Shown here: positions 42,630-60,057 of the stretch, piece after piece
How the letters are laid out: the number at the start of each line of letters is the position of its first letter
Numbering within the stretch: position 1 is the first letter of the stretch
Virus record (IMG/VR): IMGVR_UViG_3300031419_000529
Location: 1 to 64,000 of that record
From: a virus
Strand: one strand, 5' to 3'
Length of the DNA stretch: 64,000 bases
Position numbers and translations under genes: made by a program
The notes under the pieces: generated by a model
What the model saw: only the letters and a program-made list of their open reading frames with translations
Databases searched by the model: none
Told to the model about the DNA's origin: nothing

Positions 42630-43455
42630 CGATAGGCTCCAATTTACGGATAGCTTCGGTTTGAGCTTCTGAAAGGATGAATTTGGTGCTGACGGTCGCG
42701 ATCACGGCATCGGCTTTTTTACTGCCGGATTCGATCATCCTTTGCCAGCCAGGGAGGTTTTGATTGAATTTGTCAGCTGGGTAATGTGGCAACGTCAACG
42801 GCGTTTGGGTTTCTTTGTGGGGCGTCACATCCTTGGCGTCGCTGATATCCAAGGATTTACCTTCCATTTCTTCAGCCGTAGGCTGCTGGCCGATTTCGGG
42901 CCATGCTTTGCGTAGTGCCTGCGCTTCGGCGCATTTCGCTAGCTGGCCATAAGGGCGTTTCTTCCACATAGCGTTCGGCGCGGAGCTATCACGGCCAGCA
43001 GTCGCGTAATTCTCCATCCAGTATTCTTTGGCGCTGAATTCGACGATCTTGCCGTCGGGCATACTCTTGCAAACGGTGTACTTGCACCAGGCGGGAAAGG
43101 TGATTTCAACGCCATTTAGCGTTTTTGTAATGTCGTCACCAAATTCAGGCTCATTTGCACCCGCATAGCTCCCTGAGCGATCGGCCTGAATGCGATAAAG
43201 GCCGATGCCGGGCATCACTACGTCGCGCCATTCGTTTTTGCCTGATTGGGCATCTTTAACGCTCATCGGTACCAAGTGAACCGGCTTCATCAGCGGATCC
43301 AACTGACGAGCGATGCAATAGCTGACAGCCATGACAACAGAGTCATCCCGCGCGCCGGGATAAATGGAGTTTTTCAGCGCGTTCCAGGTAGGCTCATCGA
43401 TCCCCATGGCCGCGACAGATTGTGGCAAAGTGCCTGTTGTTACCATGTTGCTCAT
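42616..43455 (-). CDS. bet: Single-strand annealing recombinase Bet
   Basis: LDPLMKPVHLVP, GIGLYRIQA, WKKRPYGQLAKCAEAQALRKAWP. Confidence 0.92.
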   Translation of the reverse strand: MSNMVTTGTLPQSVAAMGIDEPTWNALKNSIYPGARDDSVVMAVSYCIARQLDPLMKPVHLVPMSVKDAQSGKNEWRDVVMPGIGLYRIQADRSGSYAGANEPEFGDDITKTLNGVEITFPAWCKYTVCKSMPDGKIVEFSAKEYWMENYATAGRDSSAPNAMWKKRPYGQLAKCAEAQALRKAWPEIGQQPTAEEMEGKSLDISDAKDVTPHKETQTPLTLPHYPADKFNQNLPGWQRMIESGSKKADAVIATVSTKFILSEAQTEAIRKLEPIDANH

Positions 43456-43610
43456 TGGTCAGCCCTCACGGAGTTACGGATAGATAAGCGGAAAACGCTG
43501 AGAACGACGGCGCAGGCTTTCAACGGATGGCGGCGGTGCTTGAATTGGTGAATATTGTGGCTGCCGATCCGGTGTTGGTACTGGATCTGTTGGATAGGGT
43601 TATGGCTCAT
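43452..43610 (-). CDS. 52-aa hypothetical protein MSHNPIQQIQYQHRIG... (not in ORF track)
   Basis: RBS GGAG; stop overlaps the bet ATG (ATGA). Confidence 0.55.
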   Translation of the reverse strand: MSHNPIQQIQYQHRIGSHNIHQFKHRRHPLKACAVVLSVFRLSIRNSVRADQ

Positions 43611-43671
43611 GGTATTCTCCGTGTTGATCGGGGGTGGTTCCCCGGTCAGCTAGCTGGTGGCCTTTGGTCAT
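43600..43671 (-). CDS. 23-aa mini-ORF MTKGHQLADRGTTPDQHGEYHEP
   Basis: Preceded by TAAGGACTGGCCA (variant of the shared RBS motif); overlaps the next start. Confidence 0.45.
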   Translation of the reverse strand: MTKGHQLADRGTTPDQHGEYHEP

Positions 43672-43750
43672 TGGCCAGTCCTTATGATTTGCGGTTTGGT
43701 CGCCGCATTTCGGGATAGCCCCGCTTGCGGGGCTTTTCTCGTTTATGGGG

Positions 43751-44083: not shown

Positions 44084-44216
44084 TTATTTACCTAACTTAT
44101 AATGTTAATTGATATAAATTTAAGTGATACTATTTGCATTAAGGATTTGTTTTCTAGGTGAAAAAACAAATAATGGATGTATAATAAAGAAATTAATATT
44201 TTAAAGTGATGAAATA

Positions 44217-45596
44217 ATGGACGAGTTAAATATATTAAATAATCTTAATAAATTGCGCAGACTTATTTCTGATATAGAGTCTTCAAATGTAGGTAGTAAG
44301 AATGACTTGCACTTCGAGGCTAGAGAAAATGTAAAGCAATTGTTAGAGGGGAATGTTTTTATTATTCGTGGAGCTTTATCCTCTCTCGAATCTAGTAATA
44401 AAAGAGTTCTCAAGAATTCTGAGATTGAAGATGTCAAACACACTTTATCGTTTGTGAGTAAAATTTGCTCAGATATTAACGATTTAAATGCAAAAAGTCC
44501 TTTGTACATAGCCGCTGTAAGAAATAACTTAACTAAAATGGATGAGTTATTAGAGCAAATAAAGCCTATTGTTAGGTTTTTTGTTACAACAGGCAGTGGG
44601 CTAAATGATAGTAGTGCAATGGTCGAGCGAGTTAAAAATACACTAAAAGATGCATCAATTCTCCATCATACAATGACGGTAAAACTAGCAAAATTAGATG
44701 AGAAAATAGATTCAGCCTCTAAAATAATTGGTGCTTCTTCGGCTAAGTTTGAAAAAATATCAAAAAACTTAGATAACCTTGAAGAATCTAATAGCAAATA
44801 TCAAAAAACAATCTCATTATTGGATTTAGAGTCTGATTTGATTTCTGAAAGGAAAAGTGAGTTAACTGCAGCATATGAACTTCTTTCTAGTGTAAAAAAA
44901 ACATATAGTGAAAATAACGAAACTTTAAAAACTATAGGTGACAACCTATCAAGTTTAGAGAGTAGTGTTAGTGACATAGAGTCTAGGGCGACAAATGCTA
45001 AAAACGATCTTGATAGTAAAACAAGTGAAATTGACTCTATAATTGCACAGGCAGCAGCTGCTTTAGAAACGACAACTACTGTATCGGTTGGGACTTTCTT
45101 CAAAGAGCAGTATGACATTTCTAAAAACCGCATGTTTATTTGGCCATCTTTTGCACTTGCATTCTTAATTGGGGCAATATGGATTTGCTATGATACCTTA
45201 AGCGATATTCGTCATGGGGTTGTTGATGGTGGAGCTGAACTGCCTTATATAATTGCAAGGTTTTGTATTGCGCCATTATTCTTATTAGGTGTTTGGTTCT
45301 GTACTAATCAGTATATTAAACAAAAAAATATAACTGAAGATTACGCATATAAGAAAGTTTTATCTTTATCATTAATTGGCTTCAAGTCCGAGATACAGAA
45401 AACTGGCGAGGCCAATACGACAGGATTTATAAAATCACTACTAAAAGAAATCCTTCGCTCTCCTTTGGAAACTTTAGATAAAAAGCATTACAAGAGAGAG
45501 ACAAAACTATTAAAATTAGCGCATGATGAGATGATTTCCAATATGTTTAAAAAAGTGTCTCCGCAAAAGACCGAAGTTGACGAAGAAAAAAAGTAA
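44217..45596 (+). CDS. AT-rich coiled-coil protein with two C-terminal TM helices (moron, candidate defence)
   Basis: ~300-aa heptad region, two TMs, EDYAYKK tail; antisense to the pL operon; bidirectional terminator at 45616-45646. Confidence 0.85.
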   Translation: MDELNILNNLNKLRRLISDIESSNVGSKNDLHFEARENVKQLLEGNVFIIRGALSSLESSNKRVLKNSEIEDVKHTLSFVSKICSDINDLNAKSPLYIAAVRNNLTKMDELLEQIKPIVRFFVTTGSGLNDSSAMVERVKNTLKDASILHHTMTVKLAKLDEKIDSASKIIGASSAKFEKISKNLDNLEESNSKYQKTISLLDLESDLISERKSELTAAYELLSSVKKTYSENNETLKTIGDNLSSLESSVSDIESRATNAKNDLDSKTSEIDSIIAQAAAALETTTTVSVGTFFKEQYDISKNRMFIWPSFALAFLIGAIWICYDTLSDIRHGVVDGGAELPYIIARFCIAPLFLLGVWFCTNQYIKQKNITEDYAYKKVLSLSLIGFKSEIQKTGEANTTGFIKSLLKEILRSPLETLDKKHYKRETKLLKLAHDEMISNMFKKVSPQKTEVDEEKK

Positions 45597-45658: not shown

Positions 45659-45922
45659 TCAAAAGACCCCATGGGGTACGCGGCTGCAACCGCGCATTTT
45701 CTGGCGGCCGGCGGCGCTGATTTGCCCTGGTGCAAGAAGTTCGCTCTCAACCGTGCGGCGTTTGCGTGGCTTCGGTGGTGCTGGCATATCCGGCATCGTT
45801 TTACAGCGGGTGATCACCAACGTTGTTTTTTCGATACGGTCGCTGCTGCGTTGGATACGCTCTTGAAGTTCACGAGCGCGGCGGAGTGTTGCTGATTTTG
45901 CTTTTGCTGTAATCATGGTCAT
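45659..45922 (-). CDS. N-like antitermination protein (Arg-rich)
   Basis: SATLRRARELQERI Arg-rich motif; early position in the pL operon; boxA upstream. Confidence 0.55.
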   Translation of the reverse strand: MTMITAKAKSATLRRARELQERIQRSSDRIEKTTLVITRCKTMPDMPAPPKPRKRRTVESELLAPGQISAAGRQKMRGCSRVPHGVF

Positions 45923-46060
45923 TGGTCAGTCCTCGGGTGGTACTTTGTGTCGTGAGCATTTTGGTTATTAATGCTTTTTGAATGATTAGGTTACCTGCTT
46001 TTTTCCACATCAGGCGAGGTGGTATCTTGGTGTTTCCACACAACCAAGAAGGCAAAACAG

Positions 46061-48270: not shown

Positions 48271-48510
48271 ATGACTACGACAGGCAAGACGCTGTATCAG
48301 ATCCTGAAAGAAAAGTACGGGAATGACAATGGCATCGCGAAGGCGTTCAGTGTTGAACGACCAACTGTTTTTACCTGGCGGAAAACCACGCCAGAAAAAA
48401 TCGCTTTGCTTTGCCATATTTCCCCCGAAATCCCATACACCTACAACCCAGCGGACTACGGCCGCAACCCTGAGAATTTAAGCCTGGTTCTGACCAAACC
48501 AGCCTGTTAG
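48271..48510 (+). CDS. cro: Cro-like protein
   Basis: GIAKAFSVERPTVFTW HTH; RBS GGAGG before ATG 48271. Confidence 0.75.
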   Translation: MTTTGKTLYQILKEKYGNDNGIAKAFSVERPTVFTWRKTTPEKIALLCHISPEIPYTYNPADYGRNPENLSLVLTKPAC

Positions 48511-48530
48511 CAACGCATAAGGACTGACCA

Positions 48531-48893
48531 ATGACCACAATTTACCAGCCAGGCAATGGAACGGCAGGGGCCGCGATAGCCTCCGGCGTTCGCCGTGAGC
48601 TGCTGTCACGCAAGAAGGTAGGCAAAAACGGCCTACCATTCGCTGCTGTACGCGAAGACCAGATCAAAACGCGATGGACTGAGAGCGAGGCAGTGACGAT
48701 CAAAAGTGCTGCCGATGCCATGGCGTCCAACCCCGCAGTTGAAACCAACGTCGCCGCGATCCGGGGCTTTCTGGCTATGTTCGCTGAAGCCCCTGAGATG
48801 TTGGTTCACGTCCACAACGAACTGAAGGCCGCCGGCCTGTCTGTTCCTGAATGGCTGCCACCACTTCCATCAACAAAGGAGCTGCCACTATGA
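48531..48893 (+). CDS. Regulatory protein in the CII position
   Basis: Position after cro; carries the shared RBS motif. Confidence 0.65.
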   Translation: MTTIYQPGNGTAGAAIASGVRRELLSRKKVGKNGLPFAAVREDQIKTRWTESEAVTIKSAADAMASNPAVETNVAAIRGFLAMFAEAPEMLVHVHNELKAAGLSVPEWLPPLPSTKELPL

Positions 48894-50124: not shown

Positions 50125-50614
50125 CCCGGAACAGCTGAACTACGCCATCAGGGCGGCACCGGGACGCAAGTTTTATCCGTTCCCTGCGCCACCGGACTGG
50201 CTGTCCATGGCGAAAGAGCTGATCGACGCCAGACTGCCGACAGTGGATAGCGTGATGGAGGAGTTTGACCGTTACAGCGCAAGACGGGGCTATTTCGACA
50301 GCCCTGAAGAGTTCAGATGGAAAGCGCCGATCTTGTACTGGATTGTCACCGATATGCGCAAGGCTATGCAGCAGTACAACCATGGCGTTGCTGAGCTGCG
50401 AAAAGTGGCAGAGCGGCTGCTCCGTCAGTGGGAAAAGAAACTACAGGATGGGGAGCAAATCCCGGAACCAGCAATCAGGCTGGGTTACACGGAAACGCCG
50501 ATAGGTGTTGGAAAAGAACGGGGATTGACCACCCCCGAAACAGAGAAAAAAGGCGCGGCGCTTCTTCAGGCAATTCGGCTGAAGGTGGCCCTAGCAAAAA
50601 CAAGTAAGGACTGA
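49859..50614 (+). CDS. Replication protein P-like (helicase loader); start uncertain
   Basis: PFPAPPDW, LPTVDSVMEEFDRY, LYWIVTDMR; follows the initiator. Confidence 0.75.
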   Translation: MRDRNGPKPVTAAAMQRIASSRASPQYEPYRKNTATAAEQKTIQGIVLTVILPMYPIHWPTWVSRMNTTVLMEAFGTELTRVLLQDAINPEQLNYAIRAAPGRKFYPFPAPPDWLSMAKELIDARLPTVDSVMEEFDRYSARRGYFDSPEEFRWKAPILYWIVTDMRKAMQQYNHGVAELRKVAERLLRQWEKKLQDGEQIPEPAIRLGYTETPIGVGKERGLTTPETEKKGAALLQAIRLKVALAKTSKD

Positions 50615-50617
50615 CCA

Positions 50618-51760
50618 ATGACCATTTGTATCAAAAACGCACTGATTTACCGCTTGTCCCGAGGTGTGGATCTGAGCGGGATGGAAGAGCAACTGGCTGC
50701 ATTTGCGTTCACGCCATGCGGTAGCCAGGACATGGCAAAAACCGGATGGGTGGCACCAATTGGCGATGCGCTCGTGCACACCGCCAACGGCCAGCATCTG
50801 CTGGTGGTACAGCGCGAAGAGAAACTGCTCCCGCGTGAAGTTATTCAAACCGAGCTGAACGAGAAAGTCGCCAAACTTGAAGCCGAACAGCATCGGAAAC
50901 TGAAAAAATCAGAGAAAGACGCTCTCAAAGACGAAGTGCTGCATAGCCTGCTGCCGCGTGCTTTCAGCAAACACCATAAAACACAGATCTGGATTAACGA
51001 AGGGGCCGGGTTAATCGTCGTTGACGCCGCCAGTGCCAAACGCGCCGAAGATGCGCTGGCGTTACTGCGCAAAAGCTTGGGTTCCCTCCCAGTGGTGCCG
51101 TTGGCCATGGAAAGCCCGATCGAGCTGACCGTGACCGAATGGGTACGCTCTGGCCAGCCGCCAGCGGGCTTTACTCTGCAAGATGAGGCCGAGTTGAAAG
51201 CGGTTTTGGAAGAGGGCGGGATCATCCGTTGCAAGAAGCAGGATCTGGTCGGTGATGAAATCGCGTCAAACCTGCAGGCGGGTAAGTTGGTCACGAAGTT
51301 GGCGCTGAGTTGGCAGGATCGAATTGATTTCGTGCTGAGCGATGACGGCACGCTGAAGAAACTGAAATTTAGCGATGTGCTGCTGGAGCAGAACGACGAT
51401 ATTGATCGGGAGGATTACGCCCAACGCTTTGACGCGGACTTTATTCTGCTGACCGGCGAGCTGGCGGCGTTGATTGCCAACCTGGTTGCAGCGCTCGGCG
51501 GGGAAGCGAGCCATTCTGCCAATAGCAGCGGTTCAACGGCTAATGAGGATGACGATTCGCTGAATGATGAACGTTATCCTGAAGCTGTCCAGTTTGTTCT
51601 GGCCAAGGGCAGCGCTTCGATTTCAGGCCTGCAGCGTCAATTCCGCATTGGCTATAACCGCGCTGCGCGGCTGATAGAGCAGATGGAGGCTGGTGGCGTG
51701 CTGTCGGAGCCCGGTGTCGATGGCACACGGACAGTGCTGAGTACAGGGGCCGAGCAATGA
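50618..51760 (+). CDS. rdgC: RdgC with C-terminal FtsK-gamma winged helix
   Basis: [22 protein letters not shown]; [24 protein letters not shown]. Confidence 0.92.
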
Positions 51761-56165: not shown

Positions 56166-57701
56166 ATGAAAAATATAGTGGAAATGTCTTTTGAATGGCA
56201 GAACGAGAGTAATGGATTTCCAGCGGATAATCTGGATCGGGCCAAATATGCTAGATTCTTAACGGATTTCTTGGTTGCTAAAGGCAGTGAAAAAAATTAT
56301 GTTTTGAATGTAAATGCTTCATGGGGCGCTGGGAAAACATGGTTTTTGAGACGTTGGTCTGAAGAGATTAAAAAGAATTATCCTGTGGTATTTGTTGATG
56401 CATGGAAAAGTGACCATTCAAAAGATCCTTTTTTGTCTGTTGTATCTGCAATTTCTAAAGATCTAGAGCCATTAATAGATGTGAGATTTAAAGATAGCGC
56501 AATAACGAAAAAAAGCTGGCTATTATTAAAAAGTATAGCCCCCGAAATTACAAAAGGAATTGTGAAAAAATATTTGAGCTTAGATATTGATGAGGTATCA
56601 AAAGCAATTAATAATAATGATGCATCCTCCATTGCTGGTGTGGGCGCCAAAGCAGTTGAGAAATTAATTAAGTTTCATGATGAAACTAATAGTTCCATTG
56701 ATGACTTCAAAGAAGCTACATCAAAATATTTGGATTTAATTGTCAATAAATCAGATAAAGAGTTACCTCTGTTTGTTTTCATAGATGAATTAGACAGGTG
56801 CAGGCCAACTTATGCAATAGAAATGCTTGAAACAATAAAGCATATATTTGATATGGAGAACGTGGTTTTTGTTATTGCTACTGATAAAGATCAGCTGCAA
56901 CACTCAATAAAAGCTGTATATGGAAGTGGATTTAACTCAACAAAATATTTGGATCGTTTTTTTGATAGATCAGTTACTTTGAGAAAAACCTCGCTCTTTG
57001 ACTACATAAGTAACATGATTTCAAATAGTAATATTTTAACCGATTATTTTAGCAGGTCAGATTGTAGTTGGATGATACCAGTTAATAATTTGGATCAAAT
57101 TTCTGATAGGGTTGAATGGCTTTCAGCAATGTCACAATGTTTTTATATGGATTTAAGAACGACAAAACAATGGATTGAGCGATTGGAAGCATCAATATTA
57201 TCCTCGGGTGATCGTATTGATTTTATATTTCTTTCATATTTACTGGCATTAAATAGTGTTAATGGAATCACATATGCAAATGTTGCTAACACAACATCAA
57301 TTATGGGGGCTGACTTCAAAGGTAAATACATTTCTGAATTGTATCGTGACATTGTAAATCCAGATGTTAAACTGAATTTTTCTTTTGATTGCTCTGTTTT
57401 AGGTGATAAATTAAACATTAAAAACTCAAGTTCATACACCAGAAACCCATTTAAAATCGTAAATTTTTCGTTAGGTGTTCATGAGTTGTTTTTCAGTCTC
57501 CACTGTTGTGTGAATACAATCGACCCACAGAGGGTAATTGATGAGCAATGCTTTTCTTTATCTCAACGCTTAATGGAAGGTGGTCAAGATACAAGGATGA
57601 TTGATATAGGATTGATGCAAGCTGTCATAATGAGGAATAATAATGGGGTGAGTTTCCATGATTATATAGATATAGTAGAGCTAGCAATGATATTAGAATG
57701 A
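56166..57701 (+). CDS. KAP-family P-loop NTPase
   Basis: WGAGKT Walker A, DAWKSD, FIDELDRCRP, YLDRFF. Confidence 0.93.
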   Translation: MKNIVEMSFEWQNESNGFPADNLDRAKYARFLTDFLVAKGSEKNYVLNVNASWGAGKTWFLRRWSEEIKKNYPVVFVDAWKSDHSKDPFLSVVSAISKDLEPLIDVRFKDSAITKKSWLLLKSIAPEITKGIVKKYLSLDIDEVSKAINNNDASSIAGVGAKAVEKLIKFHDETNSSIDDFKEATSKYLDLIVNKSDKELPLFVFIDELDRCRPTYAIEMLETIKHIFDMENVVFVIATDKDQLQHSIKAVYGSGFNSTKYLDRFFDRSVTLRKTSLFDYISNMISNSNILTDYFSRSDCSWMIPVNNLDQISDRVEWLSAMSQCFYMDLRTTKQWIERLEASILSSGDRIDFIFLSYLLALNSVNGITYANVANTTSIMGADFKGKYISELYRDIVNPDVKLNFSFDCSVLGDKLNIKNSSSYTRNPFKIVNFSLGVHELFFSLHCCVNTIDPQRVIDEQCFSLSQRLMEGGQDTRMIDIGLMQAVIMRNNNGVSFHDYIDIVELAMILE

Positions 57702-57724
57702 GAAACATTAATAAGGACTGACCA

Positions 57725-58537
57725 ATGACCAACGTAATAGAACAACTTATAAAAATGCACGATCCGCGCTGTGTAAGCGCGGAGTCAATGAATGTAGGCC
57801 GCGGGCGAGCTTCCCTGACCAGGGAGCAAATTCTCGGAGCATTCGCAGCCGCGCAGCACCAGCACTCAGTTGGCCTCGACCTGCTGATGACTAAGTACCG
57901 CAGCGACTTCAAGGCGGAGCAGCGGCTACGTGCAGCGATCAATGAATGGGTACATCAACGCCCGCATCCCGAACGCGCGGCTGCTGCATGTCAGTTAGCC
58001 CTGAGTATTGTGCTTGAGCGTAACCTGCCGGCACAGATATCACACCTCGCGTCATTATTACGCAGGTATGGCCCACGTACTGCTCAAACCCGAAAGAACA
58101 TTGAGGCGCTGCAGTCAGAGATTAAGGCTTTAGACAAGCGCCGATGCCAGGTGCAAATCAGCGATACTGTTTACGTTGAGGCTGGATTAGAAATTACCGA
58201 TTTGAATACACGGATTGAGCGGGAACGTGCAGCATTGCGCGCCTGGTCTGAACGCCACGCAGCCACAACCAATATTTGCCCACGATGCTCAGGCACTGGC
58301 CGTACTGTTAGACCGCACCCGGTAGAGTGCGAAGAGTGTGGTGGTAAAGGTAAGATACCCGCCAATATGGAACACTTGCGTAACTCTATGCGTATCATAG
58401 GGGCCGAGGTAGCTCCCGGGAAGTGGGTTACTGAATATATCTCATTGGTTGGAGCTTGTATCAACTGGCTGTATTGTAAAGAGGAGCAAGCAGGTAAGTG
58501 CATAAAAAACAGGATTATAAGCGAATTATACGACTGA
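57725..58537 (+). CDS. Q-like late antiterminator with Zn finger
   Basis: CPRCSGTG...CEECGGKG; position before the late promoter and lysis genes. Confidence 0.75.
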   Translation: MTNVIEQLIKMHDPRCVSAESMNVGRGRASLTREQILGAFAAAQHQHSVGLDLLMTKYRSDFKAEQRLRAAINEWVHQRPHPERAAAACQLALSIVLERNLPAQISHLASLLRRYGPRTAQTRKNIEALQSEIKALDKRRCQVQISDTVYVEAGLEITDLNTRIERERAALRAWSERHAATTNICPRCSGTGRTVRPHPVECEECGGKGKIPANMEHLRNSMRIIGAEVAPGKWVTEYISLVGACINWLYCKEEQAGKCIKNRIISELYD

Positions 58538-58603
58538 GTGTTATGGTACCATTAGTGTACTGAGATTTTTTAGGATTAAGAAAATCAATCAAAAGGGGAA
58601 ATA

Positions 58604-59098
58604 ATGAGCAATCCTGCACTAGCGTTAATAAATTGGATCGAGGGATTCCCTTTGGAAACCCAGGACGAAATTACTTTTTTGGTATGCGCATCTCACCCCA
58701 GTTTCAGCGCCGATATTGACAACATCTTTAAGTCTAAAGAGTATTCGTCAAAAATCCTTGAACTTTTAAAGGGTTCCACTAGTGGTGATTTTAAAGATAT
58801 TGGAGTAATTGTCTCATTTCGTGCGCTGTTCGATTATTTTTTCTTGGCAAAACGCGGAACTAAAGAAGGATGGGATGAGACGGTTAAGCTATTTGACAGC
58901 GTAATCAATGACCCATCTGAGAAACCTGCTGGTGTTGTTGAGCAAGCTAAAGAAATGAAAGATAAGGTGCCAGAAAGAATGGCGCAATGGATTGCGATAT
59001 GTGATTCATGGAAGCAACTTAAACTAACATCGCTCTCAGATGATGAAATTGAACAGTGGCATAACGCTCAAGCTTTCTCGACCTATAAGCCTGTTTGA
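58604..59098 (+). CDS. Hypothetical accessory protein between Q and pR'
   Basis: 164-aa ORF with RBS AGGGG. Confidence 0.75.
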   Translation: MSNPALALINWIEGFPLETQDEITFLVCASHPSFSADIDNIFKSKEYSSKILELLKGSTSGDFKDIGVIVSFRALFDYFFLAKRGTKEGWDETVKLFDSVINDPSEKPAGVVEQAKEMKDKVPERMAQWIAICDSWKQLKLTSLSDDEIEQWHNAQAFSTYKPV

Positions 59099-59124
59099 TA
59101 TTACCAATTCATCGATGTTAGGAG

Positions 59125-59153
59125 TTGCTTATAGTTCTATAACGCGCTAAATT
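59125..59153 (+). promoter_or_regulatory. Late promoter pR' of prophage 2
   Basis: TTGCTT-N17-TAAATT; -10-like TATGCT at 59171. Confidence 0.65.
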
Positions 59154-59159
59154 TCCGAA

Positions 59160-59243
59160 AGATGCCGGAGTATGCTTAAAGCTACTTCGGCTTTTTTATT
59201 GGTCAGTCCTAAGCCTGCATGGTTCGCCCAGCAGGCTTTTTTT
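59160..59243 (+). ncRNA. Candidate ~85-nt antisense sRNA from the pR' leader
   Basis: Hairpin 59164-59191, unpaired TTATTGGTCAGTCCT 59196-59210, terminator 59211-59243; the seed is complementary to six RBS/start sites. Confidence 0.65.
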
Positions 59244-59269
59244 ATTCCCCCAAGCAGGGGAGGTGGAGT

Positions 59270-59512
59270 ATGAAAATGCAGGAGAAAGCAAGCCTCGCGG
59301 CCTACCTCTCTTCAGGGTTTCTTGTGCTGGTGGGGAAGGTGGGGAAATTACTTAACGATCTCACTCTGAACGATTGGGCGATCGTCATCGGTATCATCAT
59401 CGGTATCGCGACGTTTGCCGCAAACCTGTACTTCCAGAATCGCCAGACACGAGCTATTGAACGCGCCTCACGCGCCGGCGCCACAATCATTAACCCGGGG
59501 CGTGCCAAATGA
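59270..59512 (+). CDS. Holin (two-TM, pinholin-like) with dual start
   Basis: Met-Lys-Met; LTLNDWAIVIGIIIGIATFAANLYF; upstream CCCC/GGGG hairpin. Confidence 0.85.
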   Translation: MKMQEKASLAAYLSSGFLVLVGKVGKLLNDLTLNDWAIVIGIIIGIATFAANLYFQNRQTRAIERASRAGATIINPGRAK

Positions 59513-60057
59513 CGATTAAAAAGAAGGTTAGCGCTGTCGTTTGCTCTGTGTCCGTGATTATCGGGCTGGTATTGAACCAGGCGGGGGATTTCAAATCCGC
59601 GAATGGTAATCCCCTCCGATTTTCCAAGGCGGCGATGGAAGTCATGGGGAATGCGGAGAGTTGCCGCCGGGATCCGTATCTATGCCCTGCCCAAATCATT
59701 ACGCAGGGAATCGGTCATACCGGGAAAGGTGTAGCCGCCGTCAGCAAAGCGAGTGATCAGCAGATCGCTAAGTGGTTTGCCGAAGACCAACTCGATGCGC
59801 AGAACTGTATTGAGGTGAACGTTGAACGTAAGCTGGGGAAGCAACTCCCCCAGGGTGTATTCGATGGGATAGGGAGTTTTATTTTTAACGTCGGCTGTGG
59901 CCAGTTCACCCGCTCGACGATGTACCGATATCTGCTGGCTGAAAAAAACGTAGATGCCTGTGAGCAGTTGCCCCGATGGATTTATGCCGTGGGAAAGGTG
60001 CTTAAGGGACTGGTAATTCGTCGCGACAAAGAGAAGGCGCTCTGCCTGGCTCACTGA
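59509..60057 (+). CDS. SAR endolysin, GH24 lysozyme
   Basis: N-terminal weakly hydrophobic anchor; ESCRRDPYLC...TQGIGHT; FNVG; GLVIRR. Confidence 0.9.
   Translation: MTIKKKVSAVVCSVSVIIGLVLNQAGDFKSANGNPLRFSKAAMEVMGNAESCRRDPYLCPAQIITQGIGHTGKGVAAVSKASDQQIAKWFAEDQLDAQNCIEVNVERKLGKQLPQGVFDGIGSFIFNVGCGQFTRSTMYRYLLAEKNVDACEQLPRWIYAVGKVLKGLVIRRDKEKALCLAH

Follow-up and report, generated by a model that had tools for sequence, protein, structure and literature searches.

Results

A structured leader between the Q-like gene and the lysis genes

The window, i.e. the whole 64-kb stretch of DNA analysed here, is part of a 91-kb IMG/VR provirus record (G000) of a lambda-like prophage. A leader lies in it between a Q-like gene (phrog_127) and the lysis genes, with a holin gene (PF16080/PF04971) from 59270. 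In the following, cassette denotes a 15-nt sequence at early gene starts and anti-cassette its complement. The features of the leader are:

59125..59153, + strand: late promoter, with TTGCTT at 59125-59130, a 17-nt spacer ending in GCGC, and TAAATT at 59148-59153
59158..59163, + strand: AAAGAT, putative -10-like element at the transcript start, invariant in all units
59164..59197, + strand: hairpin 1 with a U6 tract (T1), tR'-type intrinsic terminator (fold; compensatory changes at three stem pairs)
59196..59210, + strand: anti-cassette seed UUAUUGGUCAGUCCU, predicted to be unpaired (fold, complementarity, conservation)
59211..59245, + strand: terminator 2, a UUCG-type hairpin (core GCAUGGUUCGCCCAGC) with a U7 tract (fold, comparison of class A leaders)

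A sequence-only reading of the same DNA had described four elements here, namely a promoter, hairpin 1 and its U6 tract, an unpaired UUAUUGGUCAGUCCU and a further terminator, and all four are present where it placed them. Folding of the RNA from 59160-59246 gave a hairpin, whose stem spans 59164-59191 and is followed by the U6 tract, then the unpaired seed and then the terminator (-33.3 kcal/mol, z -3.9). In relatives, the -35 element of the late promoter is TTGACC or TTGACT, and the core GCGCTAAATT is kept in 41 distinct leaders, followed by four bases, AAAGAT and hairpin 1 with its U tract. The AAAGAT element presumably corresponds to the AACGAT sigma-dependent pause element of lambda PR', which it recalls.

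The 91-kb record holds four late units (59144, 66595, 74725 and 82750), each with an immediate terminator. Because hairpin 1 is present in all four, its most plausible reading is a tR'-type terminator belonging to a Q-controlled unit. With its U6 tract, hairpin 1 should act as a strong terminator that halts most unmodified polymerase before the seed; thus, the seed probably enters RNA mainly by read-through or Q antitermination. This agrees with the earlier suggestion that the U6 tract of hairpin 1 may make read-through necessary for including the seed, a tR'-type terminator probably being present in all late units. Three of the units (66595, 74725 and 82750; loci L202-L203) lie beyond the window end; the one at 66595 holds part of an anti-cassette (GGUCAAGGUCAGUG, which scores -20.6 kcal/mol with the cassette), and the other two are without one.

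In class A and class B leaders (see below), the seed adjoins an intrinsic terminator with a U7 tail and is unpaired or looped, while the stems covary. We considered terminator 2 as an sRNA-specific scaffold and rejected this, because the same UUCG-type terminator (core GCATGGTTCGCCCAGC) is widespread as an intrinsic terminator in many unrelated viral contigs; being generic, its conservation is no evidence for an sRNA scaffold. Downstream, the translation initiation region (TIR) of the holin gene (59247-59278) has a dual start encoding Met-Lys-Met, with ATG codons at 59270 and 59276, and a CCCCC...GGGGAGG hairpin that could sequester the Shine-Dalgarno sequence (SD), an arrangement that recalls the dual-start control of lambda S.

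A cassette supplies the starts of early genes

The 15-mer AGGACTGACCAATGA occurs exactly four times in the window, at 45919-33 (-), 48520-34 (+), 50607-21 (+) and 57714-28 (+), and with one mismatch at 43452-66 (-), 43668-82 (-) and 59196-210, the last being the reverse-complement copy in the leader, which matches the 13-mer exactly. At up to two mismatches there are eight matches where 0.12 are expected, a number reached in 0 of 100 shuffles. Real ORFs take their SD and ATG from five of the copies:

57714..57728, + strand: cassette at the start of the Q-like antiterminator gene (phrog_127; 57725-58537)
50607..50621, + strand: cassette at the start of the RdgC+FtsK-gamma gene, holding the TGA that ends the ORF before it
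48520..48534, + strand: cassette at the start of the 120-aa cII-position gene
45919..45933, - strand: cassette at the start of the 87-aa N-position gene
43452..43466, - strand: cassette variant AGGGCUGACCAAUGA at the start of RecT

The sequence-only reading had counted six copies in ribosome-binding sites; these five stand, while the sixth, at 43668-82 and assigned to a mini-ORF, is not a conserved start. In relatives, the ORF at this copy has 23, 6, 17, 7 or 4 codons, or no ATG, and the copy at 43668-43682 is the opposite strand of a second RNA gene, described below.

In total, 154 of 201 distinct motif contexts, a count that includes unrelated single metagenome matches, start ORFs of at least 40 aa, and the genes concerned recur in relatives, i.e. 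those for the N-position protein, the cII-position protein, RecT, RdgC and Q, and a few others. The cassette is an asymmetric repeat found at starts of non-structural genes only, with none in the host chromosome outside the prophage and with rare reverse copies; it holds the direct repeat TGACCA-A-TGACCA. Moreover, two reading frames meet a stop within it (an internal TGA and an ATGA overlap), and a TAA or TGA frequently lies ahead of it. In 30 of 87 family contexts, the ORF upstream terminates within the cassette, at position -1, 6 or 13, through a TGA that shares the A of AGGA, through the internal TGA or through the overlapping ATGA. Because upstream ORFs often end in this way, the block also works as a portable stop-SD-start coupling junction.

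Two other roles for the cassette were rejected. As an rRNA enhancer, it would be expected to pair with 16S rRNA, but the cassette scored -13.6 kcal/mol against Serratia 16S rRNA and shuffled sequences on average -16.5 kcal/mol. As a CII-type antisense promoter, in which its complement would serve as a -35 or activator site, it is without a conserved -10 element at a suitable distance, as judged by reading the flanks of the G000 cassettes rather than by a formal test.

Two further observations concern the surroundings of the cassettes. An element, GACCAAACC, lies about 10-20 nt upstream of the cII-position cassette (48491-48519) and of non-coding cassette copies (43683-43702 (-)), and recurs in relatives as CGACCAAACCG. 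An AT-rich ORF of 459 aa (44217-45596, +), which runs against the pL region that encloses it, has the look of a moron; strong promoter-like sites (44158-44185) closely precede it, and its PHROG match is weak and to a tape-measure-like coiled region.

Cassettes and leader occur together in prophages of four genera

Pattern scans for the leader and cassettes identified dozens of related proviruses in Serratia, Yersinia, Pectobacterium and Brenneria, and both elements were matched in many isolate-derived proviruses and also in genomes carrying these names. In more than 40 related proviruses from the four genera, the anti-cassette lies directly upstream of the lysis genes. In eight of eight whole host genomes (4-5 Mb), all exact cassettes (13-mer or 12-mer) fall within a single prophage stretch, with none found elsewhere; the 12-mer search covered four of the eight. 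A ninth, fragmented assembly, that of P. fontis, has exact 12-mers as single copies on two contigs. In Brenneria rubrifaciens, the sole late unit is seedless and cassettes are absent.

Among 50,697 phage records, no cultured relative with more than 30% identity was found for window positions 57600-59600 (blastn) or for Q (tblastn). Rfam 15 gave no family at gathering score anywhere in the window, and the leader is without homology to a described RNA family. A literature search with the motif returned chance matches in unrelated papers only.

The anti-cassette is kept through leader rearrangements

Of 46 Q relatives, 42 have an identifiable lysis leader, and all 42 have the anti-cassette together with a cassette-type TIR at the Q start. 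This TIR is the exact GGACTGACC in most of the 42 and a one-base variant in a few, and the spacing from cassette to ATG varies by 0-3 nt. The anti-cassette occurs in three leader layouts, with Q proteins down to 32% identity, and is always predicted to be single-stranded or in a hairpin loop in these proviruses.

Class A, the type in the window, has a contiguous 15-nt anti-cassette between terminators 1 and 2; across 12 distinct class A leaders, the seed varies only by one C>U and one terminal U>A change, and the stems change with compensation. In class B, the spacer AUUGGUCAGUUCC GGUCAGUCCUGAC is rearranged and contains GGTCAGT twice, 11 bp apart; folding places GGUCAGUCC in a 12-nt loop. The third leader type has a different promoter and holin, and its Q is 32-35% identical; it keeps GUCAGUCC(U), followed by a hairpin with a UUGGUC or CUGGUC loop, a terminator and the holin gene. 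Because the supporting genomes are all related, the co-occurrence of cassette and anti-cassette partly reflects shared ancestry; however, this objection is countered by the retention of the anti-cassette through three leader rearrangements. The leader copy is non-random and lies unpaired in a promoter-terminator unit directly after the Q gene, as first proposed, and it is kept with the cassettes across rearranged leaders.

When 44 distinct late-unit spacers were scored against the cassette, lysis-operon spacers reached -21 to -27 kcal/mol while most others were equal to shuffled sequences. Late units that do not precede lysis genes are mostly without complementarity, and a few keep partial GGUCAG repeats. 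The outgroup pair of Q relatives, L236 and L237, showed no leader pattern up to 3 kb from Q; L236 has cargo genes after Q. Late promoter, hairpin 1 and terminator 2 also occur with an unrelated spacer at L170/L180 (Pectobacterium fontis and Pectobacterium sp. B1J-3) and L339-L340, in chromosomal regions without homologues of the window prophage within +/-20 kb; such units may belong to a satellite or island that borrows a helper's Q-dependent promoter. The class E unit is weak as a negative control because its region is without homologues of the window prophage.

The provirus G001, which is rated complete, keeps the cassettes and the second RNA and has different late genes; a Q homologue, a holin homologue and a recognisable leader copy were all not found in it. 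The sequence-only reading had held that relatives keeping the ribosome-binding-site motif without the antisense copy would speak against its proposal, and G001 is such a relative with respect to the leader copy only, as it retains the second RNA. We conclude from G001 that the leader copy is dispensable and accessory, and is not the reason why the cassettes exist.

A second candidate anti-cassette RNA gene

A further candidate gene for an anti-cassette RNA is found in a non-coding stretch of 150 nt, where it runs antisense to the pL operon:

43590..43745, + strand: second candidate anti-cassette RNA gene, with an extended -10 element, three hairpins (UUGGUC-type loops), a central GGUCAUUGGCCAGUCCU and a terminator at 43717-43734

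This candidate RNA has no Rfam match; every subgroup keeps it, and its stems show many compensatory changes. In each lineage examined, it has one or two central mismatches or wobbles against the canonical cassette. Its complement reaches over ATGACCA, where the leader has UUUUUU; the second RNA, and not the leader, may therefore account for the partial conservation of cassette positions +4 to +7. The second RNA, which is separately promoted, has an anti-cassette similar to that of the leader and probably shares the targets of the leader seed.

Predicted pairing of seed and cassette

The predicted duplex of seed and cassette has 15 bp, covers the SD and AUG, and has an energy of about -25 kcal/mol. 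When duplex energies with the seed were computed along the entire 91-kb record, six sense sites stood at -24.5 to -25.2 kcal/mol; the next-best site in the scan scored -20.1 kcal/mol and the background was -7.5 +/- 2.6 kcal/mol. The class A leader copy is a perfect match to the canonical cassette, and the C>U change in the seed of L166/L221 keeps a wobble pair.

Two variants in the window whose changes preserve G-U pairing had been taken as an argument for RNA-RNA pairing. This argument fails family-wide: only 8 of 23 cassette substitutions preserve pairing and 15 break it, position 7 varies freely, becoming A, C or T, and among the 23 substitutions no bias towards pairing-preserving changes was seen.

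Discussion

On balance, and by a modest degree, we favour the view that the 15-nt stretch in the late leader is a functional anti-cassette that pairs with the early mRNAs carrying the cassette and thereby causes a late-to-early shut-off. The transcribed seed would base-pair with the SD-to-AUG cassette of the mRNAs for the N-position protein, the cII-position protein, RecT, RdgC and Q; pairing would block binding of the 30S subunit and probably expose these mRNAs to RNase. Because hairpin 1 is probably a tR'-type terminator, the seed would enter RNA by two routes. By one, read-through of hairpin 1 would give a minor product of about 85 nt that ends at terminator 2 and has the usual layout of an Hfq-type RNA, with a hairpin at its 5' end, then a single-stranded, AU-rich seed and finally a U7-tailed terminator. 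By the other, which would account for the bulk, late transcripts antiterminated by Q would all carry the seed at their 5' ends. Because polymerase modified by Q should pass terminator 2 as well, a discrete sRNA is not assured.

If every late transcript made after Q starts with the seed, feedback from late transcription onto N, Q, cII-position, RecT and RdgC mRNAs is favoured. Most likely, then, as far as can be read from the DNA, late transcription switches off early-gene translation through RNA pairing, and a weaker constitutive dampening in the lysogen is possible. The sequence-only reading had also proposed superinfection immunity. An immunity weapon of the arms-race type is disfavoured by cassettes and seeds that are near-identical across four genera, because escape would be selected, as with P1/P7 c4; internal timing control, or a frozen multi-component circuit, fits better. 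We also entertain, more tentatively and at somewhat less than even chances, a wider scheme in which stop-SD-AUG cassettes on both antiterminator genes, the cII-position gene and the recombination genes would form a phage-wide translational regulon that is read by two anti-cassette RNAs, the onset of late transcription silencing the early programme including Q.

The same elements can be explained in other ways. The cassette may be mainly a portable stop-SD-start junction that spread by recombination among mosaic phages, with the leader copy as a hitch-hiking or relic inverted copy that regulates nothing. The 30 of 87 family contexts in which the upstream ORF stops within the cassette, the variation of 0-3 nt in the spacing to the Q ATG and the retention of cassettes in G001 without a leader copy all agree with such an origin; however, a relic would not persist intact and single-stranded through three leader rearrangements and divergence of Q to 32% identity, its confinement mainly to lysis-operon spacers would be unexpected, and the second conserved RNA would be left unexplained. 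We consider this explanation unlikely. It is equally conceivable in principle that the motif is read by a protein, either an RNA-binding translational regulator akin to T4 RegA or RegB or a binder of duplex GGTCAG/CTGACC in either orientation, for which the leader site would be a further binding site or a decoy. A protein could account for the direct repeat TGACCA-A-TGACCA, for the two GGTCAGT copies 11 bp apart in class B leaders and for the tolerance of change at cassette position 7. That nearly all copies are in the sense orientation exactly at start codons is, however, unexpected for a DNA operator, and a binder of single-stranded RNA would not recognise the complement; moreover, no candidate protein was identified, the antisense side of the G000 cassettes shows no conserved -10 element, and we regard a protein reader as quite improbable.

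Pairing could also be real but occur in cis. N-type antitermination would carry pR transcripts through Q, the late promoter and both terminators, such that the cII-position, RdgC and Q cassettes and the anti-cassette would reside on one molecule, and long-range intramolecular pairing, or the RNase III sites that result from it, would tune translation of Q and the early genes. Indeed, three cassettes (48520, 50607 and 57714) and the anti-cassette (59196) point the same way on the + strand of one operon, and hairpin 1 would limit an independent seed-bearing sRNA. By contrast, the pL-operon cassettes (N-position and RecT) are on the other strand and can be reached only in trans, and the second RNA, with its own promoter and terminator, suggests that anti-cassettes act in trans in this phage family. 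Pairing confined to one transcript therefore seems improbable to us, and we retain late-to-early shut-off by the leader seed as the preferred reading.

If this reading is correct, the temporal control of lambdoid phages would gain a post-transcriptional layer, in which one leader-borne seed co-represses N, Q, cII-position and recombination genes via a shared portable cassette, and the 5' ends of late mRNAs would offer an example of such ends as regulators. One cassette and one anti-cassette would make a compact engineerable switch. Because prophages of Yersinia, Serratia and the plant pathogens Pectobacterium and Brenneria carry the system, ordinary lysogens are usable for its study.

Comparison with known systems

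Several phage systems lower cII or Q, or many early genes, post-transcriptionally. The c4 RNA of P1/P7 and the CI RNA of P4 are phage small RNAs, of which c4 pairs with ribosome-binding regions of phage regulatory genes; each has one operon as its target, is processed from the transcript of that target, and diversifies into heteroimmunity. The leader resembles both in showing its complementary sequence in loops or unpaired regions; in contrast to them, it has its own promoter, and its proposed targets are many, dispersed and marked by one cassette that scarcely differs between genera. Lambda OOP and PaQ, both transcribed in cis as antisense RNAs, restrain cII or Q, and T4 RegB, which cuts GGAG, and T4 RegA, which binds TIRs, are proteins that shut off early genes through their SD regions. 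The likeness to all of these would lie in the post-transcriptional outcome; OOP and PaQ each have a single cis target, and RegA and RegB are proteins whereas the leader is an RNA.

StxS, an sRNA from a PR' leader, binds Hfq and represses stx1B translation by pairing (PMC7547250), and lambda 6S is listed as Hfq-dependent (PMC12197685). Like these RNAs, the leader is predicted to be a short structured RNA just downstream of a Q-dependent late promoter and to end at intrinsic terminators. Unlike them, it is without a sequence or Rfam match; its seed is placed after the first terminator, and its proposed targets are at least five early regulators of its own phage that share one identical built-in cassette.

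The sequence-only reading regarded the system as undescribed. This holds in part, a partial precedent being the start-associated sequences (SAS) of Cluster K mycobacteriophages, which also have a single reverse copy (PMC3203893). The SAS is an asymmetric repeat of about 13 bp that includes the SD, lies a few bases from the starts of non-structural genes only and is absent from the host genome; its single copy in the opposite orientation stands apart from any gene start, and a partner, either RNA or protein, has been proposed (PMC3203893). The cassette is likewise an SD-containing repeat at early gene starts with rare reverse copies, but it differs in that it includes the start codon and that its reverse copies sit in defined non-coding units, i.e. 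the late leader and the second RNA gene; sequence, host phylum and phage type are unrelated. If anti-cassette pairing takes place, it would provide a testable mechanism for the SAS, the function of which has been open since 2011. Among the systems compared here, none has both a TIR cassette shared by many early genes and, in a late leader, a seed complementary to it. Of the known systems, the cassette most resembles the Cluster K SAS, a likeness of kind and not of homology.
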